DNA of 64,000 nucleotides from contig CM126218.1 in assembly GCA_052327205.1 (NCBI GenBank), positions 27,094,001 through 27,158,000 of the forward strand, read 5' to 3'. This DNA is from Somniosus microcephalus. Its lineage: Eukaryota. The notes under the pieces were generated by a model, which saw nothing but the letters and a program-made list of their open reading frames with translations, did no database searches and was not told the origin of the DNA. Below, piece by piece: positions 10,425 through 53,578 of this stretch (within the stretch, counting starts at the first letter, position 1; every line of letters starts with the position of its first letter). The position numbers and the translations under genes are program-made.

Positions 10425-12270
10425 AATTTTCTGATGGGCCTCTAGAAATCTGGTTAGAGTAAGTGCACAGGAAAGGGAGTCTCTTTTTCAATGTGATGGC
10501 CAATGGACCACAAGACAAGGTGGCAACAAATCTGACTGCCTGGTACACTATTCATCATATCTGCTGCAATGCCAGAAGAAATTTAATGACCTCACCAAGT
10601 CAAGCAAGGTAGGACATCCCACTGTAACCTTATATTAATGCTATTTATTGAGCATGCATGGCATGTAGAGTATCTTCTCTCTCACACTGCCTTGCAGTAC
10701 TTTGAAGGCTTACCATGAATGCCCATTATGCAGTGGGGTGCACTTTGTAGCAGCAACCTTCCACTCTTAAGTCCTCCTGCATTTGCATCCTTAAATATCT
10801 TTGCCCCAAAGGAATCCTTCCTTGTGTGCTATGTGCTGCATTGTGAAGCTGTGCTGACAAGTTGCAGGAGAAGACAGCACATATTGATGAGAAACTGGGA
10901 GGAGGGCTCCCCAACTCATTTGAGGAGGCAGCACTGTAAATATTAAGAAGAGACATCTTGGAGGAAGCAACGGATGGGGATGTAGAAGGTTTGGCTTGAG
11001 CTCAGCGTTAATACTAGCCTTTGCCCATTCTTTCCTATTCTATTCACTCACTCACTCAATGGGCCAAAGCATACACTGAACCCCAGTACCATGTCACTCA
11101 TCCTACTGAAAGCTATACCTGGGAGGTTTGCATAAGGACATGATTGTAACATATGTTTCTCTTTTCTGTCTCTTGGACGGCCAGAAGAAGAACCCGCAAG
11201 ACCCAATGATACTGAGCAGGGCAACATTTCACAACATACAACATCAGGCCCTCTAACCTTCCAAAGCAACAGTTCAGGTTCCTCCACCAAGAGGGACTTT
11301 GAGAATGAGATCGAGGAGGATGCAGTGGGTGAGACACAGAGCACAGGCAGGAGCTCAGGCAGGAGCACAGGCAGGAGCTCAGGCAGGCAGGAGCACAGGC
11401 AGGAGCACAGGTAGGAACACAGGCAGGCAGGAACACAGGTAAGAGCACAGGTAGAAGCACAGGCAGGAGCACAGGCAGGCAGGAGCTCAGGTAGGAGCTC
11501 AGGCGGGAGCACAGGCAGGAGCTCAGGCAGGAGCACAGGCAGGAGCTCAGGCAGGAGCTCAGGTAGGAGCACAGGTAGGAGCTCAGGCAGGAGCACAGGT
11601 AAGAGCACAGGCAGGAGCACAGGCAAGAGCACAGGTAGGAGCTCAGGTAGGAGCACAGGTAGGAGCTCAGGCGGGAGCACAGGCAGGAGCACAGGTAAGA
11701 GCACAGGCGGGAGCACAGGTAAGAGCACAGGCAGGAGCACAGGCAGGAGCACAGGTAAGAGCACAGGCAGGAGCACAGGCAGGAGCACAGGCGGGAGCAC
11801 AGGTAAGAGCACAGGCAGGAGCACAGGCGGGAGCACAGGCGGGAGCACAGGCAGGCAGGAGCACAGGTAGGCAGGAGAAGTGATGATGGGAGTGGAGGAA
11901 CAGGAAACTACTGTCTGGAGAGCTAGCTCAGCTGAAGAAGCCATTGATCCGAACTTCGGGGACCTGCTTGTAAAAGGATGATTTCGGAGCATCAAAGGTT
12001 GTTACAATTATTGGAGACTGTGCCAAGCTACTTTCAACAGATGACAGCTAGTGCGGAGGAGTACACTGCCAGCATCTGTGCTGTGTTGATGCATGGAATC
12101 GAAACAGTGTACACCATGGAGTATGTAGCAGTCCTAGGGATACCTACCATGGAGCACTCTGAGTTAGAGGTCCTAAGGCCAGTCATTGTATCGCATGAAT
12201 ACTCAGACTGCTGCCATAGAGTCTTTGTGCTCCAAAGTGCAAGAGGTTCTCTCCGCCATCTTGGATAGGC
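10425..12270 (+). pseudogene. Decayed Harbinger Myb/SANT-like gene (multi-exon remnant)
   Basis: FSDGPLEIWLE*..LQCQKKFNDLTKSSK|GTAGG (donor ~10609), then TTGCAG|EKTAHIDEKLGGG (~10867). Exon phases parallel the Myb gene at 19809-21628. Stops and frameshifts present. Confidence 0.65.
11339..11875. repeat. 12-bp minisatellite (consensus GGAGCACAGGCA with variants), about 40+ units
   Basis: Directly visible tandem array; it explains the PVLL and ACAP repeat ORFs on the minus strand. Confidence 0.95.
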
Positions 12271-17520: not shown

Positions 17521-18171
17521 AGGAGTAAATGGGGTAGAAATTGGACCTTGTTGCATCTGTGTTGCACCTGATTTTGGGGACCAACATCCTGCACCACAAG
17601 GATGCCTGAAAAAAGTTCGATCCAAAATTGGGTCAGGCCATTTTTCAGGCGTCCCTGGCAGCCACCTAAAACAGTCATTATGGCCTAGAAATTCAGTTGG
17701 TTGCGCCAGCCGTTAGCGCCTTAAGAGAAGTGAATTTTGGGCGCTATGCGTGTAGCGTCCGGGCGCAGCGCGATCTGCGCCTCGCCCCAAATTAAGTAGA
17801 CATTTAGCGCCGGCGCAAAGTCTTAGCGCGCGCTCACCTGCGCGCGCAGAAAATGACGTCATATCCTCGTGCAACGCCCTGATCCAGAACTTCAGTGGGA
17901 CCGCCCCATTGTGCGGCCGGCGGCCCGAACACTTGTTTAGTGGAACGCAACAGAGCCGACGCGGGCCCCGGGGAGCGCAAATTAAAGGGCACTTACCCTG
18001 CACTATAAAGGGCAGCCATTTTGCAGCAAACACTCTTGTGCAACGGATTTCTGGAGAGAGACCAAGGAAGAGAGCTTTCTGGTTTGGGCCAACACTAGCT
18101 CAGGTATTTTTGGCTTCAGGCCAGAGCGTTGCAAGTGGCCTCTTGGATATTTGACTGTTTGGCAGCATATT

Positions 18172-19323
18172 ATGGGGGCTGCATGGGGTGCCAATGCTGA
18201 GTTTCAGCGTCATGTCCGTAGGGCTCGCAGACGCGGTGTGAGAGGGGCAGCCCTGGCTAGATGCAGAGGGGGCAACAGGCGTTGGCAACATAGGCCTTAC
18301 CCAGTCAGGGCATACCGCCAGCAGCGCTCCTACCTCAACATGAGTGGCGCGCGATGTGTAAAAAGGCTGAGATTCCGAAAGGAGGTGGTTGGAGAGATCT
18401 GCCAGCTGCTTCGCAGAGATCTGCGTCCAAAGCTCAGGAGCAGGACGTCTCTGTCGGTGGAAGCGAAGGTGACGGTGGCCTTGAACTTCTATGCCACCGG
18501 CTCCTTCCAATCCGCTGCTGGGGACATTGCTAACATATCCCAGTTCGCCGTGCATTGCTGCATCCGCCAGGTGACCGATGCCCTTTTCAGAAGGAGACGC
18601 CAATTCATCTCCTTCCCCATGGCCCTGGAGAGGCAGCATCAGCGTGCACTGGGATTTGCAAGATTCGCGGCCTTCCCCTTGGTGCAGGGCGCCATTGACT
18701 GTACGCATGTGGCTTTGCGGGCACCTGTGGAGCATGCCGAGGATTACCGCAACCGGAAGGGCTACCATTCCCTCAATGTGCAGCTGGTGTGTGACCACAA
18801 GCAGCGCATCCTAGCTGTCAATGCCCGCTTTCCAGGCAGCAGCCACGATGCCTTTATCCTGCGGCAGACAACTGTGCGTGACATGTTCGAGGCACAGCCT
18901 CCCCCAAGAGGATGGCTTCTTGGGGACAAAGGCTATCCTTTGTGTACCTGGCTCATGACCCCGCTCCGCGCGCCCAGGACCCCTGCTGAAGAGGCATACA
19001 ACGAGAGTCATCAAGCGAGCAGGAACATAATCGAGCAAACAATTGGTGTCCTCAAGCAACGGTTCCGCTGCCTGGATCGTTCCGGCGGATCTCTGCAGTA
19101 TTCGCCGGACCGAGTCTCCCAATTCGTCGTAGTTTGCTGCATGCTGCACAACCTGGCTCTCCGCAGGACTCAGGCACTGCCACCTCACGTTGGACCACCA
19201 CCTCAGGAGGAGGAGCAGGAGGAGCATGAGGAGGAGGAGCAGGAGGAGGAGGAGTACCATCCCAGGAGGGAGCGAGAAGGTCCAAGGGCCGTCCGTCGGC
19301 GGCTTATTGAACGTCACTTCTAA
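18172..19323 (+). CDS. Harbinger (HARBI1-like) DDE transposase, 383 aa, intact
   Basis: First ATG at 18172. HTH region (LNFYATGSFQ..ISQ..V..CI..VT), GAIDCTH (D), NRKGYHSLNVQLVCD, PGSSHD, LLGDKGY (D), RNIIEQTIG.LK.RFRCL (E), CCMLHN and an acidic tail. Confidence 0.95.
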   Translation: MGAAWGANAEFQRHVRRARRRGVRGAALARCRGGNRRWQHRPYPVRAYRQQRSYLNMSGARCVKRLRFRKEVVGEICQLLRRDLRPKLRSRTSLSVEAKVTVALNFYATGSFQSAAGDIANISQFAVHCCIRQVTDALFRRRRQFISFPMALERQHQRALGFARFAAFPLVQGAIDCTHVALRAPVEHAEDYRNRKGYHSLNVQLVCDHKQRILAVNARFPGSSHDAFILRQTTVRDMFEAQPPPRGWLLGDKGYPLCTWLMTPLRAPRTPAEEAYNESHQASRNIIEQTIGVLKQRFRCLDRSGGSLQYSPDRVSQFVVVCCMLHNLALRRTQALPPHVGPPPQEEEQEEHEEEEQEEEEYHPRREREGPRAVRRRLIERHF

Positions 19324-23805: not shown

Positions 23806-25570
23806 CTTTGGGAAACCTGTGGACAAGTGTCGTACTGTCATTTCTTGCCTTATTAAATATTTTAGCTATGATAAAAATTCAGCTCCATTATATTCCCTAT
23901 CATGTTGTTCACCTTTAATAAATGCATCCATAATTTACTTTCAGCTGAGTTTTTTAATCATCAGGTGGCTAAGCTTTAAGATCCTTCCATAATACTGAAA
24001 TATAAAAAAGAATAATTTGGTAGATTTTATTAAGGGTGAATTCATCCATCCCGCACTCTCAGCAGGGAATATTTTTTGACAGGAGTGCAGATTGAGCTAC
24101 AATACTTGGTGCCGTGTCTCTCAGCAAGTGAGGCTCCCTGTTGGGGATGTAGGATTAGTATATAAACCCTTTGAAATACACTTTCTTTAAATACTTTGTT
24201 GCTAATGGTATGTGATCCAATGTTTTGGCTTCAGAACGAAAAGAATTTCAATAACAAAATTTACTATTTTTATTCAGCTTGGTTTTTCTCTGTGATATTA
24301 TATATTATATTTTGATTACCTGACAGGTCTTTCACAAAAAAATGATTTAGCTTTGTCCCAACTTGGATTTTCTTGGAAATGTCTTATTTCTATTGTTGTC
24401 TTTTGTGAGTTCCGACATTCTTTTAATTCCTCGCACTAATGCCGTGTGGTACTTCTGTAAATCTTTACAGATGTATCCAGGCATCTTTTCTTTTTCATAA
24501 TGCTGTCAGACAGCGACTGCTTTCAGTCTTAAAAGATTTACTTGACATTAGAGGGAATAACAGTCTTAAAAATGAGGCACGGAAATGGGTCACATGTTAT
24601 AAGGGCATTTCAGTTCTCTTGCAACTGATAAATCCTCAGTGCCCAAGACTTTTCGTCAATATAGTCATCATTCATCATTTGACTTCCAGTCTTGGTCTGA
24701 CAACCTCAGGTTGACTGCAATTTGAAGGATCTCTGGACTAAATTCTTAACATTACAGCTCAGTCTGATGCCACTGTTTTAAAGGAGTCATTTTTTTTTCT
24801 GACGCCATCATGATTTTGCAAAGCTGATTTTTTGCATATCGTCTTTCGCAGTACAATACATAGTTTGCTACAATTATATTCGGATGTGTGTGTTGAATAG
24901 ATTGAAAGGCTGTTTCACTGTATTTTGGCACAATTATACGCATGTTTCAGAGGCAGCATGCTAGCTTGGTGGTACCACTGTTGGATTTACAATCGGAGCA
25001 ACATAGGTCTTGAGCTCAAACATTCTGATGCTTAAATCTACCTGCTTAGGTCATGACAAGGTTTATTCATTCTTCTTGGAGTCTACCAGACAATTATGGA
25101 GTCTGTGTAGGTTAAACAGCACAGCTGCTGGTGAGGTTGCCTATTCTGGTTGGATGAATTCCTGGAAGTTTTATCACATGACTCCCGCCTGGAACAACCC
25201 TTGCTCCACCCTACCGCCATTTTCCATTCTCCAGGCGCATTGCCTTCCCATGCAATTGGAAAGGGAACAGACTCTTTGATACCCAATTGGATTAATCTTG
25301 ACTGTCAGTGAAACTGTCTTTTTTACCCCCGTTTCCAATATTTTTATTAACAAATAAATGAAAGGGTTCAAAGAAAATGGGGAAAGAAAACATGATTTTT
25401 CTCCTGGGTGGCATGCAGCAGTGTCCAGGAGATTCACCTTTAAATCCCTGGAGACTCCACGACAATCTTGGAGGATTGTCAGCCCTATCTGCTAGCTTGG
25501 AGGAAACTGTATAGAGTGGCTAGGTGATCATGGAATTAAATAAGAAGGAAAGTTAAAAAAAAGAACTGCT

Positions 25571-25846
25571 TGATGTGCCTCAATAATCCCAAGACTCGAT
25601 GTTAGCGGAACAAAACAAGGCTTTTATTAACTTAGAAGATAACACGCAGTGGAGAGAGGTATCTTCCATCTGGAGCTCTGCAGTACTGGATATGAGGCCA
25701 GACTGAGCTGGCTTACAAAGAGGCCAGGTATGGGCGGAGCCCTACACACAACACATTCCATACATTCCAATATACAATACAATGGTGAGGAGAAACCTGA
25801 AACCAACCACAGTCACAGGCAGTGATGAATGGAATATTTCATCACA
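25571..25846 (-). repeat. 3' LTR (276 bp)
   Basis: Matches 29648-29968 except for 2 substitutions and a 45-bp indel. Confidence 0.95.
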
Positions 25847-25856
25847 TTCACCTCTT

Positions 25857-28800
25857 CTATAGATTTAGTCTGTTCGGGGGTTTGGTAGTCCTCTGCGACC
25901 GACGTGGCTGTTGTGGTGTCGCGGGTGTCGGCTGGGTGTCCCCGGTGGCCTCCTGGGTCTCTGCCGGGGGTGCCGCCAGGGTTGTTGAAGGGGTAGTTGG
26001 TGGGGGTGCCATTGGTCGATGTTCTTCCGGGGGTGATGAAAGAGTAGTGGGTGGGTAAGAGTTGCTGTGGTCGTTGTTGCTGCTATTGCCGTGGTTGTTG
26101 TTGTTACCGGCTGGGGCGACGTCTTTTATTGACACGGTGTCCTCCCTTCCGTCGGCGTGCCGGACATACGCGTATTGGGGGTTGGCGTGGAGTAGGTGCA
26201 CTGGCTCCACGAGAGGGTCCGTCTTATGGCCCCTCACATGCCTTCGCACGAATACCGGACCTGGGGTGGAGAGCCATGACGGCATGGATACGCCTGAGGT
26301 GGATTTCCGGGGAAAGCTAAACATTCGTTCATGAGGCGTGGCATTAGTGGCAGTACACAATAGCGACCGTATCGAATGGAGCACATCTGAGAGGACTTCC
26401 TGCCAGCGGGAGATAGGGAGGCCCTTGGTCCTTAGAGCTAGAGTGACTGCTTTCCATACTGTCCCGTTCTCTCGCTCCACTTGACCATTACCCCGGGGGT
26501 TGTAGCTGGTGGTACGGCTCGTGGCGATACCCCTGGACAGCATGTACTGGCATAGCTCTTCACTCATGAAGGACGCCCCCCTATCCGTGTGGATGTAGCT
26601 CGGCATACCGAACAGGCAGAACAGGCTGTTGAGGCATTTAATGACCGTGGCGCTGGTCATGTCTGGGCAGGGGAAGGCGAATGGGAACCGGGAGTATTCG
26701 TCCACAATGTTCAGGAAGTAAACATTGCGGTCGACGGACGGGAGGGGGCCCTTGAAATCTAAGCTGAGCCGCTCAAAGGGCTGTGTAGCTTTGATTAAGT
26801 GGGCTCGATCAGGGTGGTAGAACCGAGGCTTGCACTCAGCGCAAGTGCGGCAGTTCCTGGTCAGAGACCGAACTTCCTCAATCGAGTAGGGTAAGTTGCG
26901 GGACTTTATGAAGTGGAACAGCCGCGTGACCCCTGGGTGGCAGAGGTCGTTGTGGAGGGTCTGTAGCTGATCCCCGGTGGCGCTGGCACACATCCCTCGT
27001 GAGAGGGCGTCGGGGGATTTGTTAAGGGCCCCTGGCCGGTAAATGATGTCATAATCGAAGGTGGAGAGCTCGATCCGCCACCTAAGCATCTTATCATTTT
27101 TAATCTTCCCCCTCTGTTTATTATTGAACATAAACGCTACCGACCGCTGGTCGGTAAGTAGGGTGAAGCGTTTGCCGGCTAGGTAGTGGCGCCAGTGGCG
27201 CACTGCCTCCACGATGGCTTGGGCCTCCTTTTCCACGGAGGAGTGTCTGATCTCGGGCCCTTGGAGGGTCCTCGAGAAGAAAGCTACGGGCCGCCCCGCC
27301 TGGTTGAGGGTGGCCGCCAAGGCAAAGTCAGACGCATCACTTTCCACTTGAAAGGGAGTGTTCTCGTCCACTGCCTGTAGCGTGGCCCGCTCAATATCCC
27401 GCTTAATGCTTTTGAAGGCGGCATGTGCCTCAGCAGAGAGCGGAAAAGAGGATGCTTTCAAGAGGGGGCGGGCTTTGTCGGAGTAGTTGGGGACCCATTG
27501 GGAATAATAAGAAAATAACCCCAGGCACCTTTTCAGGGCTTTGGGAGTGTTGGGCAGGGGCAGCTCCCGTAGGGGGCGCAATCGGTCGGGGTCTGGTCCG
27601 ATTTCCCCATTCTGCACCACGCTGCCTAGTATGCAGAGGCGCGTGGTGTTGAAAACGCACTTGTCCTCGTTGTAGGCGAGGTTGAGTTTTTGTGCGGTTT
27701 TCAGGAACCTCTCGAGGTTCGAGTCGTGATCCTGCTGGTTGTGACCGCAGATGGTGACGTTGTCGAGGTAGGGGAAGGTTGCCTGCAAGTGGTGGTCATT
27801 GACCATGCGGTCCATCTCCCTCTGGAAGACCGAGACCCCATTCGTCACCCCAAAGGGGACTCTGAGGAATTGGTAGAGGCGTCCGTTCGCCTCGAAGGCG
27901 GTGTACGGGCGGTCCTCTGGTCTGATAGGGAGCTGGTGGTACGCTGACTTAAGGTCGATGGTGGAGAACACCCGGTATTGGGCGATTTGGTTCACCATTT
28001 CTGATATGCGGGGTAGCGGGTAGGCGTCTAGTTGGGTGTACCTGTTGATCGTTTGGCTATAGTCGATCACCATCCGTTTCTTCTCGCTACCCCTTACCAC
28101 CACCACTTGGGCGCGCCACGGGCTATTGCTGCATTCAATAATGCGCTCTTTCAGGAGCCTGTCTACCTCGGTCGCGATAAACCGCCTGTCCTCCCAGCTG
28201 TACCTCCTGCTTTTGGTCGCTATTGGCCGGCAGTTAGGGGTAAGGTTCGCGAATAGCGAAGGTGGCTTTACCTTCAGGGTAGCCAGGCCGCACACTGTGA
28301 GGGGCGGCTGGGACCCACCGTACTTGAGCGTGATGCTTTGGTGGTTGCACTGGAAATCCAGGCCCAAGATCACGCTCGCGCATAGATTCTTCATGATTAA
28401 TACTTTAAAATTATCGTATACAGTCCCGTTAACGGACAATTGTACCGTGCAGTAACCCAGAATGGTCGATGTCTGGGTTTTATCAGCCATAGAGATGGTA
28501 CCCCGAGTAGGGACCACCTTTAGGGAGAGTTGTTGTGCCAGTTCAGGGTGGATAAAACTCTCCGTGCTTCCGCTGTCAATTAAACATTTAACCCGGCACC
28601 CGTTTACCTCGATGTCCACCATTGATTTGGATAGCGGGTGGGGCCTGGTCTGGTCCACTGTGACCGATGCCACTGTAGGGCCCTGATCGAGACAAGATGG
28701 CGTCCACGCTGTCTGCTCACAAGATGGCGTACCCCACGAGGTCGGGCAAGATGGCGTCCAAGATGGCCGCTCCCACGGCGCACACGCGGCGGTGGCGGGT

Positions 28801-29621
28801 TTTGGTTTTCCGGCGGGGTTCCCTCTGCACACCTTCCCGAAGTGCCCCTTCTTACCGCACTTAAAGCAGGTGGTGCCTTTCGCCGGGCACAGGTTTCTGG
28901 TGTGCTTTGGCTGCCCGCAGAAGTGGCAGTTGGGTCTCCGACGCGTCGCGGCTGTCGTAGGGCTTCTGGGGGGAGAGCGGGGCCCCGACGGTGTCGGGCT
29001 GCCGGGCGGGGAAGATGCCTTCCAAGATGGCGGCGCCCTTGGTGCACACGTGGCGGCGTGGACAGCGCGGGCTGAAGAGTAGGCGTCCGAGTTTCTCTGG
29101 GCCACATCCAGGGATCGCGCGGTGTCCACAGCCTGTTTCAGGTCCAATCCCATTTTTTCCAGCAGTCTTTGCCGGATGTAAGTGGAGCTGAGGCCTGTGA
29201 TAAAGGCATCGCGAACAAGCTCGTCGGTGTACACAGCGGCTTTTACATCTCGGCACTTGCAGTCTTTGCCAAGCATTTTCAGGGTGCCTAGGAACTCCTC
29301 CACCGATTCCCCAGGTCGCTGTGCGCGAGTGGCGAGCAGATGCCTAGCATACACCTCATTCGTAGGCTGCTGGTAATGCGCCTTTAAGATGTCGCAGGCG
29401 GCCAGGTACGTGTCGGCGTCTTGGATGAGGGGGTAAACCCGGTGGCTTACCCAATTCTGCAGAATTCCGAGTTTCATACTCGCAGCGTCCGTAGCGTCTT
29501 TGACGGCTGCGGAATTGTCCAGGAAGAATTCCATACACATAAACCAGTGTCCGAAGCGTGCTGATGCATCCGGAGCATGCTGATCCAAATCCAAACGTTC
29601 GGGTTTCAGGAGTTGATCCAT
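25857..29621 (-). CDS. Gag-Pol polyprotein, 1254 aa (Gag with two CCHC knuckles, protease, RT, RNase H, integrase)
   Basis: First ATG after the LTR at 29621 (MDQLLKPERLD). CHFCGQPKHTRNLC and CFKCGKKGHFGKVC; LIDSGS; IDLKSAYHQ, PFGVTN, YLDN; ESDAS, EKEA, TDQ, DALSR; H..H..CRTC, SLDFKG, HTDRG, QVER. Confidence 0.96.
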   Translation of the reverse strand: MDQLLKPERLDLDQHAPDASARFGHWFMCMEFFLDNSAAVKDATDAASMKLGILQNWVSHRVYPLIQDADTYLAACDILKAHYQQPTNEVYARHLLATRAQRPGESVEEFLGTLKMLGKDCKCRDVKAAVYTDELVRDAFITGLSSTYIRQRLLEKMGLDLKQAVDTARSLDVAQRNSDAYSSARAVHAATCAPRAPPSWKASSPPGSPTPSGPRSPPRSPTTAATRRRPNCHFCGQPKHTRNLCPAKGTTCFKCGKKGHFGKVCRGNPAGKPKPATAACAPWERPSWTPSCPTSWGTPSCEQTAWTPSCLDQGPTVASVTVDQTRPHPLSKSMVDIEVNGCRVKCLIDSGSTESFIHPELAQQLSLKVVPTRGTISMADKTQTSTILGYCTVQLSVNGTVYDNFKVLIMKNLCASVILGLDFQCNHQSITLKYGGSQPPLTVCGLATLKVKPPSLFANLTPNCRPIATKSRRYSWEDRRFIATEVDRLLKERIIECSNSPWRAQVVVVRGSEKKRMVIDYSQTINRYTQLDAYPLPRISEMVNQIAQYRVFSTIDLKSAYHQLPIRPEDRPYTAFEANGRLYQFLRVPFGVTNGVSVFQREMDRMVNDHHLQATFPYLDNVTICGHNQQDHDSNLERFLKTAQKLNLAYNEDKCVFNTTRLCILGSVVQNGEIGPDPDRLRPLRELPLPNTPKALKRCLGLFSYYSQWVPNYSDKARPLLKASSFPLSAEAHAAFKSIKRDIERATLQAVDENTPFQVESDASDFALAATLNQAGRPVAFFSRTLQGPEIRHSSVEKEAQAIVEAVRHWRHYLAGKRFTLLTDQRSVAFMFNNKQRGKIKNDKMLRWRIELSTFDYDIIYRPGALNKSPDALSRGMCASATGDQLQTLHNDLCHPGVTRLFHFIKSRNLPYSIEEVRSLTRNCRTCAECKPRFYHPDRAHLIKATQPFERLSLDFKGPLPSVDRNVYFLNIVDEYSRFPFAFPCPDMTSATVIKCLNSLFCLFGMPSYIHTDRGASFMSEELCQYMLSRGIATSRTTSYNPRGNGQVERENGTVWKAVTLALRTKGLPISRWQEVLSDVLHSIRSLLCTATNATPHERMFSFPRKSTSGVSMPSWLSTPGPVFVRRHVRGHKTDPLVEPVHLLHANPQYAYVRHADGREDTVSIKDVAPAGNNNNHGNSSNNDHSNSYPPTTLSSPPEEHRPMAPPPTTPSTTLAAPPAETQEATGDTQPTPATPQQPRRSQRTTKPPNRLNL

Positions 29622-29647
29622 TGTGTTGAAAAATAAGTTAATAAAAT

Positions 29648-29968
29648 TGATGTGCCTCAATAATCCCGAGACTCGATGTTAGCGGAACAAAACAAGGCTT
29701 TTATTAACTTAGAAGATAACACGCAGTGGAGAGAGGTATCTTCCATCTGGAGCTCTGCAGTACTGGATATGAGGCCAGACTGAGCTGGCTTACATAGAGG
29801 CCAGGTATGGGCGGAGCCCTACACACAACACATTCCATACATTCCAATATACAATACAATGGTGAGGAGAAACCTGAAACCAACCACAGTCACAGGCAAT
29901 ACAATGGTGAGGGGAAACCTGAAACCAACCACAGTCACAGGCAGTGATGAATGGAATATTTCATCACA
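29648..29968 (-). repeat. 5' LTR (321 bp) with a 45-bp internal tandem duplication
   Basis: AATACAATGGTGAGG(A/G)GAAACCTGAAACCAACCACAGTCACAGGC occurs twice here and once in the other LTR. Confidence 0.95.
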
Positions 29969-31079
29969 CTGCTGATGATAGAAGTTGCGTGCGTTGATTT
30001 TCCAAATTTGTATTGTTGGTTTGGAGTCTGCATGAACTCCAAAAATTAGCCTGACTGTTTCTTAATGTTAAGGCGCCCTGCTGCTTATGCACCAATGGCC
30101 AGTAATTGACTGAGTGCACTACAGCCCTTGATTATTCCTGCCTTAGGAGCCCATAACATTCTCTGCTGGGGTAAGTAGTGGATGCGCACTATAGTAATTG
30201 GGCACTACATCAATTAAAGTGCTCAAAGGGGGATTACTGCGTTTTGAGGAACTAACCCTCCCTCCCTCTAATTTCCAGAGCCTCATTCGGCATATGTGTT
30301 GCCTCATTATCTCCAGTTTCAAATATGCACGGCCTGCAGACTGCTTGGTAGATAGTTAGCTACAGTGAAAGGTTGGGGACTGTTTTTCACTTAAAAAAAC
30401 AATTGAGAATGGGAATTGGGTCTTGTTACACATTCAGCCCTGCGTAGACGCCTTCTTGGGTTCTGTAGCTTCAGTCACTCCCATAAGCTGCCTGAGCATC
30501 TTTTTTCATGGAGGTTGATTCACACTGTCCTATAGCTACTTGCGCAATAGAGTAAACCAGGGATGTAACAATAGTACACCGTTGAAATCCAAGAGTGGAA
30601 TGCACCAGCCTAATTTAGAAATGGCCCCTGCTGAGTTCAAATGAATAGAGTTGTCACAGCATCATTGAGTGTGAGTAATCACTAGAATGTTAACATAATC
30701 TTTCCTTTTCACCAGCATACTGGTTCAGACACCCCATCTAAATACTAATCTATATCTCCCAACCCTGGCGTTTTGTCAATTTAACCCTTTAAAATGAGCT
30801 CAATGGTGGCATTTTTAACATTTATTATACCAAGGCCCCCCATGGTGGCTTAGTCAGACATCCTGAAATGCCCTTGTGGAAGAGGATGAACAAGGACCAA
30901 AAAGGACAGACTGTAGTGTCAGGTGTCAAGCAAGACACACTGTGGCCTCATCCCAGTAGCGAGTGCAGAGGGCATACTGTCCCAGCCAGACCTACCTGAG
31001 AATATCAGAGGAGCAGAGTTGTCGGACTGTTAGGTTAAGCCAAGAAATGGCGACTGAATTCAATCCGAACATCTGGAAA

Positions 31080-31554: not shown

Positions 31555-33086
31555 GTCATTGATTGCTTGCAATCCTCCTCAATCGTCTTCTCCCAGTGGC
31601 CAAAGAGCTCCTCCCAGAGCCGCAATGCGGATTCCGCCCACTAAGGGGCACAATGGACATGGTCTTCACCGCTCGCCAATTACAAGAGAAATGCAGAGAA
31701 CAGCACCAACCGCTGCACATGGCCTTCTTTGATCTCACAAAGGCCTTCGACATTGTCAACTGTGAGGGATTATGGAGTGTCCTCCTCAAATTTGGCTGCC
31801 CTCAAAAGTTTGTCACCATCCTCTGCCTGCTTCACGATGACATGCAAGCCGTGACCCTGACCAACAGTTCCAACACAGGCCCAATTCATGTATGAACTGG
31901 GATCAAGCAAGGCTGTGTCATCGCACCAACGCTCTTCTTGATCTACCTTGCTGCAATGCTCCATCTCACCCTTAGTAAGCTCCCCGCTGGAGTGGAGCTA
32001 TTTTACAGAACAAACGGGAAACTGTTCAACCTCCGTCACCTCCAGTCCAGATCCAAGGTCGTCCCATCCTCTGTTGTTGAATTACAGTATACAGACGACG
32101 CTTGCGTCTGCGCTCACTCGGAGGTCGAACTCCAAACCATCATCAACACCTTCACCGAAGTGTACGAGAGCATGGGCCTTACACTAAACATCCGTAAGAC
32201 AAAGGTCCTCTACCAACCTGCCCCCGCCACACAGTACTGCCCCCCGATTATCAAAATCCACGACAAGGCCTTGGACAACGTGGACCACTTTCAATACCTC
32301 GGGAGCCTACTGTCAACAAGGGCAGACGTCGACGACGAAGTCCAACACCGCCTTCAGTGTGCCAGTGCAGCCTTCGCCTGCCTGAGGAAGAGAGTGTTTG
32401 AAGACCAGGACCTCAAACCCAGCACTAAGCTCATGGTCTACAGAGCAGCAGTGATACTCGCACTGCCTCAGAGACATGGACCATGTACAGCAGGCAACTC
32501 AAAGCACTGGAGAGGTACCACCAACGCTGCCTCCGCAAAATCCTGCAAATCCATTGGCAGGATAGGCGCACCAACGTCAGTGTTCTTGATCAGGCCAACA
32601 TCCCCAGCATCAAAGCTTTGGCAACGCTCGATCAGCTCCGATGGACGGGTCACATTGTCCGCCTGCCCGATACGAGACTCCCAAAACAAGCGCTCTACTC
32701 GGAGCTCCGGCACGGCAAGAGAGCCCCAGGTGGGCAGAGGAAATGCTTCAAGGACACCCTCAAAGCCTCCTTGAAAAAGTGTAACATCCTCACCGATACC
32801 TGGGAATCCCTGGCCCAAGACAGCACAAAGTGGAGAAGAAGCATCCGGGAAGGCGCCGAACACCTCAAGTCTCTTCACCGGGAGCAAGCGGAAGCCAAGC
32901 GCAGGCAGCGCAAGGAGTGCACGTCAACCCAAGCACCCCACCCACCCACCCCTTCAACCACCGTCTGCCCCACCTGTGACAGAGACTGTAGGTCCCGCTT
33001 TGGACTCATCAGTCACCTGAGAACTCATTTTTAATGTGGAAGCAAGTCATCCTCGGTTCCGAGGGACTGCCTAAGAGAGAGAAGAG
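31555..33086 (+). mobile_element. 5'-truncated RTE-clade LINE (disrupted RT plus C-terminal C2H2 finger)
   Basis: LPEPQCGFRP.RGT.DM.F..RQLQEKCRE, FFDLTKAFD, G.KQGCV.AP.LF, YTDD, CLRKIL.I.WQDR.TN, LRW.GH..R....RLPKQ.LY.EL, CPTC..C..H...H; in-frame stop and frameshift; GA-rich tail. Confidence 0.92.
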
Positions 33087-37193: not shown

Positions 37194-40100
37194 CATAGAG
37201 TCATAGAGTAATACAGCATGGATAGAGGCCCTTCGGCCCATCGTGTCCGCGCCGGCCATCAAGCCCTGTCTAATCTAATCCCATATTCCAGCATTTGGCC
37301 CGTAGCCTTGTATGCTATGGCATTTCAAGTGCTCATCCAAATGCTTCTTAAATGTTGTGAGGGTTTCTGCCTCCACAACCCTTTCAGGCAGTGAGTTCCA
37401 GACTCCAACCACCCTCTGGGTGAAAAAGTTCTTTCTCAAATCCCCTCTAAACCTCCCGCCCTTTACCTTGAATCTATGCCCCCTAGTTATTGACCCCTCT
37501 ACTAAGGGAAAAAGCTCCTCAGCATCCATCCTATCTATGCCCCTCATAATGTTGTACACCTCAATCATGTCCCCCCTCAGCCTCCTCTGCTCCAAGGAAA
37601 ACAAACCCAATCTGCCCAGTCTCTCTTCATAGCTGAAGCGCTCCAGCCCTGGTAACATCCTGGTGAACCTCCTCTGCACCCTCTCTAACGCGATCACATC
37701 CTTCCTGTAGTGTGGCGACCAGAACTGCACACAGTATTCCAGCTGTGGCCTAACCAGTGTTTTATACAGCTCCACCATAACCTCCTTGCTCTTATATTCA
37801 ATGCCTCGGCTAATGAAGGCAAGTATCCCATATGCCTTTTTTACCACCTTATCCACCTGTTCCGCCGCCTTCAGGGATCTGTGTACTTGCACACCCAGAT
37901 CCCTCTGACCCTTCATCTTGCCTAGGGTCTTTCCATTCATTGTGTATTCCCTTGCCTTGTTAGTCCCCCCAAAGTGCATCACCTCGCACTTTTCCGGGTT
38001 AAATTCCATTTGCCACTGTTCCGCCCATCTGACCAACCCATCTATATCGTCCTGCAGACTGAGGCTACCCTCCTCGCTATTTACCACCCTACCAATTTTT
38101 GTATCATCCGCGAACTTACTGATCATACCCTTTACATTCATATCCAAGTCATTAATGTAGACCACAAACAGCAAGGGACCCAGCACCGATCCCTGTGGTA
38201 CCCCACTGGCCACAGGCTTCCAGTCACAAAAACAACCTTCGACCATCACCCTCTGCCTTCTGCCACTAAGCCAGTTTTGTATCCAATGTGCCAAGGCACC
38301 CTGCATTCCATGGGCTCTTACCTTCTTGACCAGCCTCCTGTGCGGGACTTTATCGAAGGCCTTACTGAAATCCATGTATACCACATCCACTGCGTTACCC
38401 TCATCCACACACCTAGTCACCCCCTCAAAAAATTCAATCAAATTAGTCAGACATGATCTTCCCTTGACAAAGCCATGTTGACTATCCCTGATTAATCCTT
38501 GCCTCTCCAAGTGGAGACAAATTTTGTCCCTCAGGACTTTTTCCAATAATTTTCCTACCACTGATGTTAGGCTCACTGGCCTGTAGTTCCCCGGTTTTTC
38601 CCTACTACCCTTCTTGAATAATGGTACTACATTAGCGGTTCTCCAGTCCTCTGGCACATCCCCTGTGGCCAGAGAGGTCCTGAATATATGTGTTAGAGCC
38701 CCCGCAATCTCCTCCTTTGCCTCACACAGCAGCCTGGGATACATTTCATCCGGGCCTGGGGATTTATCCATTTTTAGGCCAGCTAAAACCGCCAATACCT
38801 CCTCCCTCTCGATGTTAATATGTTCGAGCATATCACAGTCCCCCCGCCCTATTTCTATGTCTACATCGTCCTTCTCCATAGTGAAAACAGATGCAAAAAA
38901 TTCATTTAGAACCCCTCCTACATCTTCCGGCTCCACACACAGATTGCCACTTTTGTCCCTAATGGGCCCTAATTTTTCCCTAGTTATCCTCTTACCCTTA
39001 ATATACTTATAAAACATCTTCGGATTTTCCTTTATTTTGCTCGCCAGTGTTATTTCATGGCCCCTCCTTGATCTCCTAATTTCTTTTTTAAGTATCCCCC
39101 TGCACTTTTTGCACTCCTCTAGGGCTTCCTCCGTCTTTAGCCTTTTGTATCTACCAAAAGCCCTCCTTTTTTTCCTAATCCATTCTCGTATATCCCCTGA
39201 CATCCATGGTTCCTTGTGGTTTTTGGAACCACTCTTGACCTTTACGGGAACATGTTGCCATTGTATGATCTCAATCTCCCTTCTGAAAGCCTCCCATTGC
39301 TCCGATGCGGATTTTCCTACAAGTAGCTGATCCCAGTCCATTTTGGCCAGATCCTGCCTTATCCTATTAAAATCGGCCTTCCCCCAATTTAGAACCTTTA
39401 TTTCCGGCCCATCCCTGTCCTTTTCCATGACCACCTTAAATCTTACCATATTATGGTCACTATCACCAAAGTGCTCACCTACTAGCACTTTTTCCACTTG
39501 GCCGGCCACATTCCCTAGAATTAGGTCCAGTACCACCCCCTCTCTTGTAGGACTTTCTACATGCTGGCTCAAAAAGCTCTCCTGGATGCACTTTAAGAAT
39601 TCTACACCCTCTGAGCCTTTCACACTCTGACTATCCCAGTTAATATTGGGGAAGTTGAAATCCCCCATTATTATTACCCTATTATTTGCACATTTCTCTG
39701 AGATTTGCCTACATATCTGTTCCTCTATCTCCCCCTGACTGTTTGGAGGCCTATAGTACACTCCCAGCAAAGTGCTTGCCCCCTTTTTGTTTTTAAGCTC
39801 CACCCATATGGCCTCATTAGAGGACCCTGCTAATATATCATCCCTCCTTACTGCAGTAATTGACTCCTTAATTAATATTGCGACACCCCCTCCTCTTATA
39901 CCTCCCCCTCTGTCTCGCCTGAAGATTCTGTACCCCGGAATATTGAGCTGCCAGTCTTGCCCCTCCCTCAACCATGTCTCCGTGATCGCAACAATATCAT
40001 GCTCCCATGTGTTTATCAACACCTTCAGTTCATCCACCTTATTTGCAAGACTCCTTGCATTAAAATAGATGCCATCCAGCCTTGCCCTTATATATTTGCC

Positions 40101-40455
40101 CTGTCTACCAAGCTGACTTGTTTTTTTCTCTATAATTGGCAGCACATCCCCCCCTATTTCAGCTCCCCTCTGTATCCCATCCCCCTGCCAAGTTAGTTTA
40201 AACCCCCCCCAACAGTGCTAGCAAACCTCCCCGCAAGGATATTTGTCCCGCTCTGGTTCAGGTGCAACCCGTCCGACCTGTACAAGTCCCACCTTTCCCA
40301 GAAGCAGGCCCAGTGATCCAGGAAAGTAAAACCCTCCCCCCTACACCAACTCTTTAGCCACGCATTCATCTGCTCTATCCTCCCATTCCTATACTTACTA
40401 GCACGTGGCACTGGGAGTAATCCAGAGATTACAACCTTTGAGGTCCTGCTCTTTA
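37194..40455 (-). mobile_element. Young CR1 LINE, 5'-truncated within ORF1
   Basis: 3' tail (ACTCTATG)n at 37194; ATGT duplicated at both junctions; ORF1 esterase C-terminus at 40193-40455 (VVISGLLP..DGLHLN); intact ORF2. Confidence 0.96.
37275..40145 (-). CDS. CR1 ORF2 (APE endonuclease plus reverse transcriptase), uninterrupted ~956 aa
   Basis: FNARS, ITETW, YRPP, GDFN, SDH; [43 protein letters not shown]. Start codon uncertain. Confidence 0.93.
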   Translation of the reverse strand: MLPIIEKKTSQLGRQGKYIRARLDGIYFNARSLANKVDELKVLINTWEHDIVAITETWLREGQDWQLNIPGYRIFRRDRGGGIRGGGVAILIKESITAVRRDDILAGSSNEAIWVELKNKKGASTLLGVYYRPPNSQGEIEEQICRQISEKCANNRVIIMGDFNFPNINWDSQSVKGSEGVEFLKCIQESFLSQHVESPTREGVVLDLILGNVAGQVEKVLVGEHFGDSDHNMVRFKVVMEKDRDGPEIKVLNWGKADFNRIRQDLAKMDWDQLLVGKSASEQWEAFRREIEIIQWQHVPVKVKSGSKNHKEPWMSGDIREWIRKKRRAFGRYKRLKTEEALEECKKCRGILKKEIRRSRRGHEITLASKIKENPKMFYKYIKGKRITREKLGPIRDKSGNLCVEPEDVGGVLNEFFASVFTMEKDDVDIEIGRGDCDMLEHINIEREEVLAVLAGLKMDKSPGPDEMYPRLLCEAKEEIAGALTHIFRTSLATGDVPEDWRTANVVPLFKKGSREKPGNYRPVSLTSVVGKLLEKVLRDKICLHLERQGLIRDSQHGFVKGRSCLTNLIEFFEGVTRCVDEGNAVDVVYMDFSKAFDKVPHRRLVKKVRAHGMQGALAHWIQNWLSGRRQRVMVEGCFCDWKPVASGVPQGSVLGPLLFVVYINDLDMNVKGMISKFADDTKIGRVVNSEEGSLSLQDDIDGLVRWAEQWQMEFNPEKCEVMHFGGTNKAREYTMNGKTLGKMKGQRDLGVQVHRSLKAAEQVDKVVKKAYGILAFISRGIEYKSKEVMVELYKTLVRPQLEYCVQFWSPHYRKDVIALERVQRRFTRMLPGLERFSYEERLGRLGLFSLEQRRLRGDMIEVYNIMRGIDRMDAEELFPLVEGSITRGHRFKVKGGRFRGDLRKNFFTQRVVGVWNSLPERVVEAETLTTFKKHLDEHLKCHSIQGYGPNAGIWD

Positions 40456-45809: not shown

Positions 45810-47316
45810 CATGGTCATCTTCCAAAATTCTATAAATTCTGGAATGGTTCCTACAGATTGAAGGATAGCAAATGTAACCCCACTATTTAAGAAAGGAGGG
45901 AGAGAGAAAATGGGGAATTACAGACCTGTTAGCCTCATATCAGTAGTTGGGGAAATGCTGGAATCTGTTATAAAGGATGCAATAACTGAGCACTTAGAAA
46001 CTAATAGTAAGATTGGGCAGAGTCAACATGGATTTATGAAAGGGAAATGCTGTTTGACAAACCTATTGGAGTTCTTTGAGGATGTAACTAGTGGAGTAGA
46101 CAAAGGGGAACCGGTAGATGTGGTGTATCTGGATTTTCAGAAGGCCTTTGATAAGGTCCCACAAAAGAGGTTGAACAAAATTAGGGCACATGGAATTGGG
46201 GGTAATATACTAGCATGGATTGAGAATTGGTTAACAGACAGAAAACAAAGAGTAGGGATAAATGGGTCTTTTTCAGGATGGCAGGCTGTGACTAGTGGGG
46301 TACCACAAGGATCGGTGCTTGGGCCCCAGCTATTCACAATCTATATCAATGATTTGGATGAGGGGACTAAATGTAACATTTCCAAATTTGCTGATGATAC
46401 AAAGCTAGGTGGCAGTGTCAGTTGTGAAGAGGATATGAAGAGGCTTCAAGGGGATCTCAACAGGCTCAGTGAGTGGGCGAGAACATGGCAGATGGAATAT
46501 AATGTGGATAAATGTGAAGTTATCCACTTTGGTAGAAAAAACAGAAAGGCAGAGTATTTCCTAAATGGTGAAAGATTGGGGAATGCAGATGCTCAAAGGG
46601 ACCTGGGTGTCCTTGTACATGAGTCACTGAAAGTGAATGTTCAGGTGCAGCAAGTCATTAGGAAGGCAAATGGTATGCTGGCCTTCATTACAAGAGGATT
46701 TGAGTACAGGAGTAAAGAAGTCTTACTCCAATTATATAGGGCCTTGGTGAGACCACACCTGGAGTACTGTGTACAATTTTGGTCTCCTTACCTAAGGAAG
46801 GATATACTTGCCATAGAGGGAGTGCAACGAAGGTTCACGAGATTGATTCCTGGGATGGCGGGACTGTCATATGAGAAGAGATTGAGTAAACTAGGCATAT
46901 ATTCTCTTGAATTCAGAAGAATGAGAGAGGATCTCATTGAAGCATACAAAATTATGACAGGGCTTGATAGGATGAATGCTGGGAGAATGTTTCCCTTGGC
47001 TGGGGAGTCTAGAGCCAGGGGCCACAGCCTCAAGATAAAGGGTAGGCCATTCAGGACTGAGATGAGTAGAAATTTCTTCACACAGAGGGTGTGAATCTTT
47101 GGAATTCTCTACCCCAGAGGGCTGTGGAGGCTCAGTCATTGGGTATATTCAAAACAGAAGTCGATAGATTTCTGACTAGTAAGGGCATCAAGGGATATGG
47201 TGATAGGGCCGGTGAATGTAATTGAGGCAGAAGATCAGCCATGATCTCATTGAATGGCGGAGCAGGCTCGAAGAGCCGAATGGCCTACTCCTGCTCCTAT
47301 TTCTTATGTTCTTATG
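45810..47316 (+). mobile_element. 5'-truncated CR1 LINE (RT ORF 45910-47094 plus 3' UTR)
   Basis: [32 protein letters not shown]; tail TTCTTATGTTCTTATG. Confidence 0.95.
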
Positions 47317-49665: not shown

Positions 49666-52586
49666 TCATGTCCAAATTCCTGCCCGCTCCCCGTAACCCT
49701 TAATTCCCTTTACTTCTAGGAAACTGTCTATTTCTGTTTTAAATTTATGTAATGATGTAGCTTCTATAGCTTTTTGGGGCAGCATATTCCATGGACCTAC
49801 CACCCTCTGAGTGAAGTAGTTCCTCCTCATCTCAGTTTTGAAAGAGCAGCCCCTTATTCTAAGACTATGCCCCCTAGTTCTAGTTTCACCCATCATCGGG
49901 AACATCCTCCCCACATCCACCCGATCCAACCCCTTCACAATCTTATACTATTCTTCTGAACTCCAATGAGTAGAGTCCCAATCTACTCAACCTCTCCTCA
50001 TATGTCCATCCCCTCATCCCCAGGATTAACCGAGTGAACCTTCTTTGTACTGACTCGAGAGCAAGCATGTCTTTTCTTAAGTATGGACACCAAAACTGTG
50101 CAGTATTCCAGGTGCGGTCTCACCAATACCTTGTACAACTGAAGCAATACCTCCCTATTTTTATATTCTATCCCCCTAGCAATGAAAGCCAACATTCCAT
50201 TGGCCTTCTTAATCACTTGCTGCACCTGCATACTAACCTTTTGAGTTTCGTGCACCAGGACCCCCAGATCCCTTTGTACTTCAGTACTTTCCAGTTTCTT
50301 GCCATTAAGATAATAACTTGCTCTACGATTTTTCCTGCCAAAGTGCATAACCTCACACTTTCCAGTATTGTATTCCATCTGCCAAATCTCTGCCCACTTA
50401 CTTAGCCTGTCTATGTCCCCTTGCAGGTTTTATATCTCCTCCTCACTCACTACTTTCCCTCCCATCTTAGTATCATCTGCAAACTTTGATATGTTACACT
50501 CGGTCCCCTCCTCCAAATCGTTAATATAGATTGTAAAGAGTTGGGGACCCAGCACTGACCCCTGCGGAACACCACTAGTTACTGATTGCCAGTCTGAGAA
50601 TGAACCATTTATCCCAACTCTCTGCCTTCTGTTAGATAGCCAATCCTCTATCCATGCCAGAATATTACCCCCAATCCCGTGATTTTTTATCTTAAGCAAT
50701 AATCTTTTGTGTGGCACCTTGTCAAACGTCTTTTGGAAGTCTATATACACTACGTCCACTGGTTCCCCTTTATCCACCCTATATGTTACTTCCTCAAAGA
50801 ACTCCAGCAAATTTGTCAAACATGACTTCCCCTTCATAAAACCATGCTGACTTTGTCCTATTAAATTATGATTATCCAAATGTCCTGTTACTGTCTCCTT
50901 AATAATGGACTCCAAAATTTTACCTACCACAGATGTTAGGCTAACCGGTCTATAGTTTCCAGCCTTCTGTCTACTGCCCTTTTTAAATAAGGGTGTTACA
51001 TTAGCAGTTTTCCAGTCTGCCGGGACCTTTGCTGAGTCCAGGGAGTTTTGGAAAATTATTACTAATGCATCCACAATCCCTACCGCCACTTCCCTCAAGA
51101 CTCTAGGATGTAAGCCATCAGGTCCAGGTGATTTATCCGCCTTGAGTCCCATTATTTTACCGAGTACCACTTCCTTCGTGATTTTGATCATGTTTAGCTC
51201 CTCCCCCCCTAAAACCCCCTGTTTGTCCAGTGTTGGGATATTCTTAGTGTCCTCTACTGTAAAGACTGATACAAAATATTCATTCAGTGTTTTTGCCATC
51301 TCCATATTTCCCACCATTAATTTCCCGGTCTCATCCTCTTTAGCCACTTTAGCCACCCTTTTTCTTTTCATATAAATATAAAAACTCTTACTATCTGTTT
51401 TTATATTTTTTGCTGATTTACTTTCATAATCTATCTTCCCTTTCTTAATCAATCTTTTTGTTATTTTTTGCTGTCTTTGAAAGTTTTCCCAATCCTCTAT
51501 CCTCCCACTAGATTTGGCTACCTTATATGCCCTTGTTTTTAGTCGAATACTATCCTTAATTTCTTTACTTAGCCACGGATGGCTGTCTTTTCTTTTACAC
51601 CCTTTTCTTCTCAGTGGAATATATATTTTTTGGAAGTTGTAAAATAACTCCTTAAATGTACACCCCTGATCATGTATCGTCTTACCCTTTAATCTATTTT
51701 CCCAATCCACTCTACTCAATTCCGCTCTCATACCTTCATAGTTTCCTTTATTCAAGCTTAGCACGCTTGTTTGAGATCCAACCTTCTCACCCTCTAATTG
51801 AATATGGAATTCAACCATGTTATGGTCACTCATTCCAAGGGGATCCTTTACTAGGACATTTTTAATTAATCCTGTCTCGTTACACAGGACCAGATCTAAG
51901 GTTGCTTGCTCCCTGGTCAGTTCAGTTACATACTGCTCAAGAAACCCATCCCTAATACACTCAATGAACTCATCTTCAAGGCAGCCCTGCCCAATTTGAT
52001 TTGTCCAATTAATATGATAGTTAAAATCCCCCATAATTATAGATGTTCCCTTATTACAAGCCTCAACTATTTCCTGATTGATACTCCGTCCAACAGAGTT
52101 GCAACTGTTCGGAGGCCTATAGACTACGCCCACTAGTGTTTTTTTCCCCTTATTATTCCTTATCTCCACCCAAACTGTTTCATTATCCTGATCTTTTGAC
52201 CCAATAACATTTCTCTGTATTACAGTGATTCCTTCCTTTATTAACATAGCCACCCCACCTCCCCTTCCTTCCTGCCTGTCCTTCCTGATCATTAAATAAC
52301 CTGGTATGTTTAATTCCCAGGCATTGTCACCCTGCAGCCATGTTTCTGTAATGGCCACAAGATCATACCCATATGTAGTTATTTGTGCCATTAACTCGTC
52401 TATTTTGTTACGAATGCTACGTGCATTCAGATAGAGAACTTTCAAATATGTTTTGTGACAGTTAGTTCCTGCTTTTGCCCTTTCTTTTACTTTACCTTTT
52501 ACTCCATACCTTCTGCCCCTTCCTGACACGCTCTGGTTTTTCATTTCCCCACTGCTACCTAAGTCTATGACCTTCTCTGTTGTCAT
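49666..52586 (-). pseudogene. CR1 ORF2 (EN plus RT), disrupted after the FADD motif
   Basis: 718-aa open frame to FADDTK, then a stop and frameshifted C-terminal pieces. Confidence 0.9.
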
Positions 52587-52624
52587 TTTTATTATTTGCT
52601 CTCTAGGAACCTCCCCCCGACTAG

Positions 52625-53578
52625 TTAGTTTAAAGCCCTCTCTACTGCCCTAATTATATGATCCGCCAGGACTCTAGTCCCAGCACTGGCCAAGTGAAGC
52701 CCGTCCCAATGGAACAGCTCCCTCCTGCCCCAGTACTGGTGCCAGTGTCCCAGGAAGCAAAACCTATTTCTCCCACACCAGTCTTTGAGCCACACATTTA
52801 ACTCTCTAATTTTATTCATCCTAGCCAAATTCGCTCGTGGCTCAGGTAATAATCCAGAGATTATTACCCTTGAGGTTCTGTTTTTTAATTTGACCCCTAG
52901 CTGCTCATACTCCTTTAACAAAACTGGCTTCCTAGTCCTATCTACCTCGTTTGTACCAACATGGACCACGACAACTGGATCCACCCCCTCCCACTGCAAG
53001 TTTCTTTCCAGCCCAGAGGAGATGTCCTTAACCCTGGCACCAGGTAGGCAACACAGCCTTCGGGACTCTCGCTCTCGGCTGCAGAGAACTCTATCTATCC
53101 CCCTAATAATACTATCCCCTACCACTACAACATTTCTATTTACTCCCACCTCTTGAATGGCCCCCCATTCCACGGTGCTGTGGCCAGGTTGCTCATCCTC
53201 CCTGCAGTCCCTGCTCCTGTCCCCACAGGGAGTAAGAACCTCGAACCTATTGGACAACAGCAAGGGCTGCGACTCCTCCAACACTACCTCCTGGATCCCC
53301 GTACCTCCCTCACTCGTAGTCACACCGTCCTGTCCCTGACCATGGGCTACATCTGAATTAATTAACTTCATAGGTGTGACCACCTCCTGAAACACAGAGT
53401 CCAGGTACTTCTCCCCCTCCCTGATGTGTCGCAGTGTCTGAAGCTCAGACTCCAGCTCATCAACACGGAGCTGGAGTTCCTGTAGCAGCAGACACTTGTC
53501 ACAGACATAATCACCGTGAGCCTCAATGGGGTCCACCGGCTCCCACATCTCGCAACAGTAACACATCACCTGCTCCAT
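52625..53578 (-). CDS. CR1 ORF1p (zinc finger/leucine zipper plus SGNH esterase), 317 aa
   Basis: CYCC..W..YVCDKC, heptad [46 protein letters not shown]. Confidence 0.92.

Follow-up and report, generated by a model that had tools for sequence, protein, structure and literature searches.

Gypsy elements that belong to the Tf1/sushi group of chromoviruses, among them Tf1 and Tf2 of Schizosaccharomyces pombe, Tj1, Tosmo, and Tcry1, have no tRNA site. According to reports describing them, the LTR of the element base-pairs with a primer site that follows closely after its end, and a second helix begins at the predicted cut (PMC7175516, PMC10085805, PMC4600332). Primer sites complementary to the element's own LTR were also predicted from sequence for the plant Gypsy element Tcn1 and the Copia elements TAR, Houba, and Osr-1 (PMC6317226). 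Dictyostelium Skipper, with a polypyrimidine site, and fungal GalEa, with a Conserved Hairpin Site, lack a TGG and are suspected of a non-tRNA start; these papers report no complement in the LTR (PMC5006619, PMC5445492). In this literature, Gypsy self-priming is treated as a mark of the Tf1/sushi chromoviruses, with the primer at the first bases of the RNA. The literature searched (including PMC6934838, PMC3601003, PMC11042837, PMC6238403, PMC8556966, PMC5341516, and PMC9873768) holds no description of self-priming in an animal non-chromovirus Gypsy element; supplements, Repbase, or GyDB may mention such a pairing. Self-priming has so far been shown in yeast. The element described here, which belongs to a Gypsy lineage of its own, likely uses a variant of the Tf1-type process in which the primer is long and the arm, located inside the RNA, overlies the poly(A) signal.

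This 4.4-kb Gypsy element lies on the minus strand of the window, the whole stretch of 64,000 nucleotides of the Somniosus microcephalus genome that we analyzed. It has a single ORF, both its LTRs have TG...CA ends, and it is flanked by the target-site duplication AGCAG. Its features are the following:

29969..29973, minus strand: target-site duplication AGCAG, upstream copy
29648..29968, minus strand: 5' LTR, 321 nt, TG...CA, with a 45-nt internal duplication missing from the 3' LTR
29789..29796, minus strand: TATA-like box TATGTAAG, at the position where sister families carry TATAAA; presumed function
29699..29765, minus strand: putative primer, the 5' ~67 nt of the transcript, with a predicted start at ~29765 and a predicted cut at 29699/29698
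29699..29711, minus strand: LTR arm, 13 nt, pairing with the primer site; AATAAA at 29705-29700 within the arm
29693..29698, minus strand: second helix, 5' strand GCCTTG, abutting the predicted cut
29654..29659, minus strand: second helix, 3' strand TGAGGC, close to the LTR end
29647, minus strand: spacer of one base that separates the primer site from the CA closing the LTR; among 29 families, 28 have A here and one has G
29634..29646, minus strand: self-complementary primer-binding site, no TGG
29622..29647, minus strand: leader, 26 nt; the ATG begins at 29621
25857..29621, minus strand: gag-pol ORF of 1254 aa that encodes a zinc-knuckle Gag plus protease, RT, RNase H, and integrase
25847..25858, minus strand: polypurine tract, immediately 5' of the 3' LTR
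25570..25846, minus strand: 3' LTR, 277 nt
25628-25623, minus strand: AATAAA of the 3' LTR, likely the working poly(A) signal
25565..25569, minus strand: target-site duplication AGCAG, downstream copy

Pfam domains for protease, RT, RNase H, and integrase follow one another in the Gypsy (PR-RT-RH-IN) order. Together with the TG...CA LTRs, the polypurine tract, and the 5-bp target-site duplication, they identify a Ty3/Gypsy element, and Ty3 is the best match among solved structures. As the original prediction had stated, the ORF has no chromodomain, none being detected at E ≤ 0.01, and no SH3_Tf2-1 domain was found either. The tandem 45-nt duplication at 29852-29941 of the 5' LTR was probably lost from the 3' LTR, as other copies, for example L212, have it in both LTRs. 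The family is young and abundant: the 40 copies scored, of 1805 candidates, are 99–100% identical. Hypanus sabinus is the source of the best named homologues; for the clade as a whole, named homologues occur in a ray, and also in a sea anemone, an isopod, and a damselfly. Size makes Cigr-1 a tentative candidate among the named animal Gypsy clades. The viral contigs searched contained no relatives. Elsewhere the window carries a Harbinger/PIF-type DDE transposase ORF (17986-19323, plus strand) within a GC-rich block at ~18–22 kb, an array of 12-nt tandem repeats in which both strands have open frames (11356-11891), and LINE ORFs encoding an endonuclease and/or RT (31896-32774, 37275-40217, 45862-47094, 50430-53587, and 61781-62866); for the ORF spanning 52625-53587, the match is GDSL esterase-like.

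The original prediction held that the leader has no TGG primer site and that 13 nt of it are perfectly complementary to the LTR over the AATAAA signal. Both points proved exact: the leader occupies 29647-29622, and its TTTTATTAACTTA (29646-29634) is the complement of TAAGTTAATAAAA in the LTR (29711-29699) over all 13 nt. Among 5000 shuffled leaders compared with the LTR, eight reached 11 bp and none reached 13 bp. The stem is present in the minimum-energy fold, with z-scores of −2.35 (29615-29760) and −1.86 (29600-29765), and in the window family positions 29627-29623 of the leader could also pair with 29722-29718. Of 30 near-identical copies, 29 keep the stem without a mismatch, which says little as these copies were chosen by similarity. 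Rfam gave no match within 29500-30000. Host tRNAs paired with the primer site over at best 5 Watson–Crick bp, or 8 bp with GU pairs, in a comparison of four distinct tRNAs, mainly from one tRNA-Cys array. A long tandem array of tRNA genes, spaced by ~1.6 kb, occupies G000:C24:42906897-43064306; those retrieved are tRNA-Cys(GCA).

Compensatory covariation across related families had been set beforehand as a test of the pairing. Relatives were collected by Gag alignment, which yielded 80 of 120 related metagenome loci, and by searches of the own genome, which added 28 loci; the Gag N-terminus, present in 104 of 109 loci, defined 35 clusters. The LTR–leader junction was placed in 30 of the 35 clusters by a motif rule blind to pairing, and representatives were picked by Gag score. 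LTR ends were verified from LTR pairs in six clusters and in the window and set by the motif rule in the others. The five clusters without a usable junction were L041, whose stem has decayed, L048 and L053, where the upstream sequence is limited to 92 and 36 nt, and the pair L054 and L091, which show no stem. Watson–Crick stems starting at +2 have a median length of 13 bp; 23 of the 30 representatives reach 11 bp or more and 27 reach 9 bp or more, and the other three have only 3–6 bp. When leaders were paired with LTRs of other families, the median was 4 bp and 5 of 870 pairs reached at least 11 bp. None of the 30 representatives has a TGG within +1 to +8.

Further comparisons were confined to 29 families, L098 being left out, whose stem spans 9 bp or more when GU pairs are counted along with Watson–Crick pairs. 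Pairing is kept with different letters: stem columns 4–13 show two to four Watson–Crick pair types each, close subfamilies within the host genome exchange GTT/AAC, GCT/AGC, GGT/ACC, and GCC/GGC, and the primer site takes the form of 27 different 11-mers, each matching its own LTR. A common geometry recurs across families, namely an arm of 13–17 bp ending in AAA, then RCC ... CA, one spacer base, and the complement. GCC or ACC directly follows the arm in 27 of the 29 families, and a second helix starting right after the arm is above the shuffle mean in 26. A third duplex, like that of the three-duplex Tf1 pretzel, is in contrast not above shuffles (18/29 families). In one relative, L079, the LTR end and primer site are tandemly duplicated in the leader. 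The pairing is thus real and conserved, and it is very likely functional.

Most arms (22/29) contain AATAAA or ATTAAA, and seven do not. As the original prediction had proposed, it is plausible from the position of this hexamer that the helix masks the 5' poly(A) signal. In retroviruses a helix, for example the HIV-1 poly(A) hairpin, similarly hides AATAAA at the 5' LTR. Unlike in that hairpin, the primer site itself serves here as the partner strand and is situated outside the LTR, hence a structure specific to the 5' end. The AATAAA of the 3' LTR has no downstream partner for pairing and is likely the working signal.

Other elements of the host genome served as controls. Sushi-like chromodomain elements have an 11-bp self-stem past a one-base spacer (7 of 10 loci in one set, and further loci in another). 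These chromoviruses (L169-L177, L195-L204) are abundant, their self-stem is of the Tf1 type, and 30 nt separate the arm from the TATA-like box preceding it. Gypsy controls of the TGG type, which we take to be tRNA-primed Mag-like and Gmr1-like elements (12 loci, 11 with an LTR pair), have the same one-base spacer and self-stems of only 3–6 bp. As the spacer is common to both control groups, the primer 3' end in the present clade belongs at +2, paired to the last A of the arm. Another Gypsy lineage (L197, L202, and L205) has 780-nt LTRs and a TGGGGG primer site that we presume to be tRNA-Pro-like, in elements that we would label Gmr1-like. Two BEL/Pao elements, L207 (G000:C17:56165500-56175400) and L208 (G000:C9:90760500-90770400), have no TGG and show a 10-bp post-LTR match to their own LTR, ~172 nt upstream.

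The clade resembles the Tf1/sushi group, as described in the literature, in its lack of a tRNA site, the complement of its own LTR past the LTR end, and the second helix at the predicted cut. Unlike that group, it has no chromodomain or Tf2-type SH3 domain: both are absent from the window protein (P0001) and from the six relatives scanned and present in the sushi-like L169 and L195. In a 32-row RT-RH tree, from which Tf1 and sushi-ichi were left out, the clade forms its own branch (94/86), and its RT-RH identity is 32–34% to sushi-like and 30–34% to TGG-type rows. An origin of its self-priming independent of Tf1/sushi is likely from this tree, for which the tool warned of long-branch joins and in which Tf1 does not figure. 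The clade likewise differs from the other systems: Tcn1 is a chromovirus and TAR a Copia element, whereas the present elements are animal, single-ORF, non-chromovirus Gypsy elements, and, unlike in Skipper and GalEa, the complement lies within the LTR and covaries.

The predicted position of the transcript start separates the clade from Tf1 in a further respect. TATAAA lies 83–85 nt before the arm 3' end in the sister families and TATGTAAG lies 98 nt before it in the window; no consistent TATA box was seen among the metagenome families. These positions predict starts at ~54 and ~67 nt, respectively, from the arm 3' end, which would place the arm inside the RNA. The original prediction of a mechanism analogous to that of Tf1/sushi stands for self-priming, with one refinement: the geometry is not that of Tf1, as the arm would lie ~40–55 nt inside the transcript and not at its 5' end. 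In Tf1, according to its descriptions, the primer is the first ~11 nt of the RNA, whereas the arm of this clade, 13–17 bp long and ending in AAA over the hexamer, would be internal, as judged from the TATA boxes and from the end points of aberrant copies.

If RT copied a long RNA primer during plus-strand synthesis, some of the resulting copies would be aberrant: past the LTR end they would carry LTR sequence in inverted orientation that exceeds the arm in length and stops at the transcription start. We found 59 loci in which the LTR end is followed by inverted LTR past the arm, 11 in the window family (none for a reversed control in the pattern search) and 48 in the sister families. The 11 comprise four inversions to the LTR start, two of which are one insertion, and seven partial inversions. 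Six independent partial ends lie at 22, 25, and 47 nt and at 29765, 29765, and ~29768-29771; with the box at −98, three of the six are thus near −67. For the sister families, the end point of ~54 nt was predicted before the loci were read. In 22 of their 48 loci the inversion runs as far as the LTR start; the other 26 are partial and give 22 independent events after four sharing a junction were dropped. With the box at −84/−85, eight of these end at 50–56 nt, 11 at 22–47 nt, and three, at 64, 97, and 99 nt, extend past the inferred start; the search had a floor of ~22 nt for inversion length. The pile-up at 50–56 nt has P = 4e-5 under a constant stopping rate and P = 2e-3 when full-length inversions are counted as at risk. 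Partial inversions thus accumulate ~30 nt downstream of the TATA box, as expected if RT copied a long RNA primer to the cap.

Several details bear on the origin of these copies. The inverted extensions carry LTR variants of their own copy (L216, L217), and in L212 the target-site duplication is intact. Microhomology, which amounts to 6 nt in L212, makes the end points less sharp. An extra C, potentially cap-derived, lies past the run-off end in five of eight sister events and likewise in L212 and L217; with microhomology as a confounder, this base carries no weight in our argument. For full inversions to the LTR start (26 of the 59 loci), fold-back of plus-strand DNA is the best explanation, and they do not help to choose among the models. 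In 6 of 18 full-inversion loci, the truncated own LTR begins within −5 to +7 of the predicted cut, which mildly favors a cut template. In L211, L214, and L248, the 3' LTR is followed by spacer and primer-site sequence, so a primer with arm sequence is needed at this site. An equivalent search of sushi-like elements found none of these extensions, a count to be read with the longer loop of these elements and the absence of a normal-copy denominator. In L213, L228, and L264, the leader has gained 33–47 nt of inverted LTR, after which the normal leader resumes; L228 and L264 have a common junction at different loci, indicating that this leader variant has spread. The structure of L221, L227, and L229 fits an inversion of the loop between arm and primer site.

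The tRNA-independent self-priming put forward in the original prediction is supported by the covariation, by the fixed one-base register shared with the controls, and by the aberrant copies carrying LTR sequence upstream of the arm; in some form, we regard it as very likely. We further consider it probable that this non-chromovirus Gypsy element is primed in cis by a capped 5' piece of its own RNA, ~67 nt long here and ~54 nt in the sister families, cut just after the AATAAA. Transcription would begin ~30 nt past the TATA-like box, near 29765. The arm (29711-29699) would then anneal one base past the LTR end, a pairing shown by covariation, and a short RCC/GGY helix would stack on it in the predicted fold. 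The RNA would be cut between the last arm A and RCC, presumably by RNase H, by analogy with Tf1. RT would extend from the last arm A through U5, and the strong-stop DNA would jump via the short stretch between hexamer and poly(A) site, the repeat for the first strand transfer being the ~20 nt between the cut and the poly(A) site. Plus-strand synthesis may copy the RNA primer, at times to its 5' end, a route that would generate the aberrant copies observed; such copying would overwrite the primer site with arm sequence, keeping both matched. The helix, able to form at the 5' LTR only, would hide the 5' poly(A) signal.

Self-priming could also operate in trans, which we hold to be unlikely: short poly(A)-terminated LTR transcripts, made from the 5' LTR or a solo LTR, or else the 3' R end of another genomic RNA, would anneal by the arm and be trimmed to the duplex, the template staying uncut. 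This would account for why arm and poly(A) hexamer coincide (22 of 29 families), and short LTR transcripts would yield the same run-off at the transcription start, whereas a 3' R primer predicts no ends there. In two RNA-seq runs, LTR-derived RNA is abundant, as such a primer source would have it. Reads of these runs span the entire ORF, their strand bias is the one to be expected of sense transcription if the library is a typical stranded one, and they show no pile-up of ends at the predicted start, cut, or poly(A) site. A dip in depth at the hairpin, for which solo LTRs, diverged subfamilies, or library bias may be responsible, was not used. A primer in trans would, however, face competition from the local hairpin, and a cut template agrees better with the RCC/GGY helix conserved where the arm ends and with the cluster of truncations around the predicted cut (6/18).

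A strict Tf1 geometry, with the start at the first arm base and a primer of ~13 nt, is less probable still. The longer inversions would then be fold-back accidents of RT-made DNA or of host replication at an inverted repeat. This arrangement is the one proven for Tf1 (PMC7175516), and the 26 full inversions among the 59 aberrant loci can be accounted for by fold-back without a long primer. DNA fold-back cannot, however, account for ends that move with the TATA box between families, and this box lies 84–98 nt before the arm 3' end in the shark-genome families versus 30 nt before the arm in the sushi control.

We consider it very improbable that the helix merely masks the 5' poly(A) signal or controls translation while an unseen host RNA, such as a tRNA half or small RNA, primes at or beside it. 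The arm does lie over AATAAA/ATTAAA in 22 of 29 families, and the host tRNAs compared were limited to four distinct ones. Conserved host RNAs could nevertheless not serve 27 different 11-mers in 29 families, each matching its own LTR, in a register fixed to the LTR end, and the L211, L214, and L248 junctions require a primer bearing arm sequence. Functionless chance pairing, to which 12 A/T among the 13 arm bases of the window family and the modest folding z-scores might point, has a negligible probability given the 0/5000 shuffles at 13 bp and the G-C pairs swapped in and out, and is refuted by the cross-family control (at least 11 bp in 23/30 own versus 5/870 cross pairs).

Beyond cis priming by the capped 5' piece, we tentatively propose, as a possibility short of an even chance, a wider scheme for a widespread animal Gypsy clade with self-priming independent of Tf1/sushi. 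One helix would make the poly(A) signal the primer 3' end, hide it at the 5' LTR, and set the cut that leaves a ~20-nt repeat, and RT would copy the long capped primer, rewriting the primer site at each cycle. If true, tRNA-free priming would be more general and geometrically flexible, there being another Gypsy lineage that uses a long primer and an arm inside the RNA, and priming would be tied to the choice between two poly(A) signals. Aberrant genomic copies would be a record of the primer 5' end, and other elements lacking a primer site could be studied in the same way. Tools needing a tRNA primer site would miss or mislabel such self-primed elements, which would themselves evade tRNA-fragment control.
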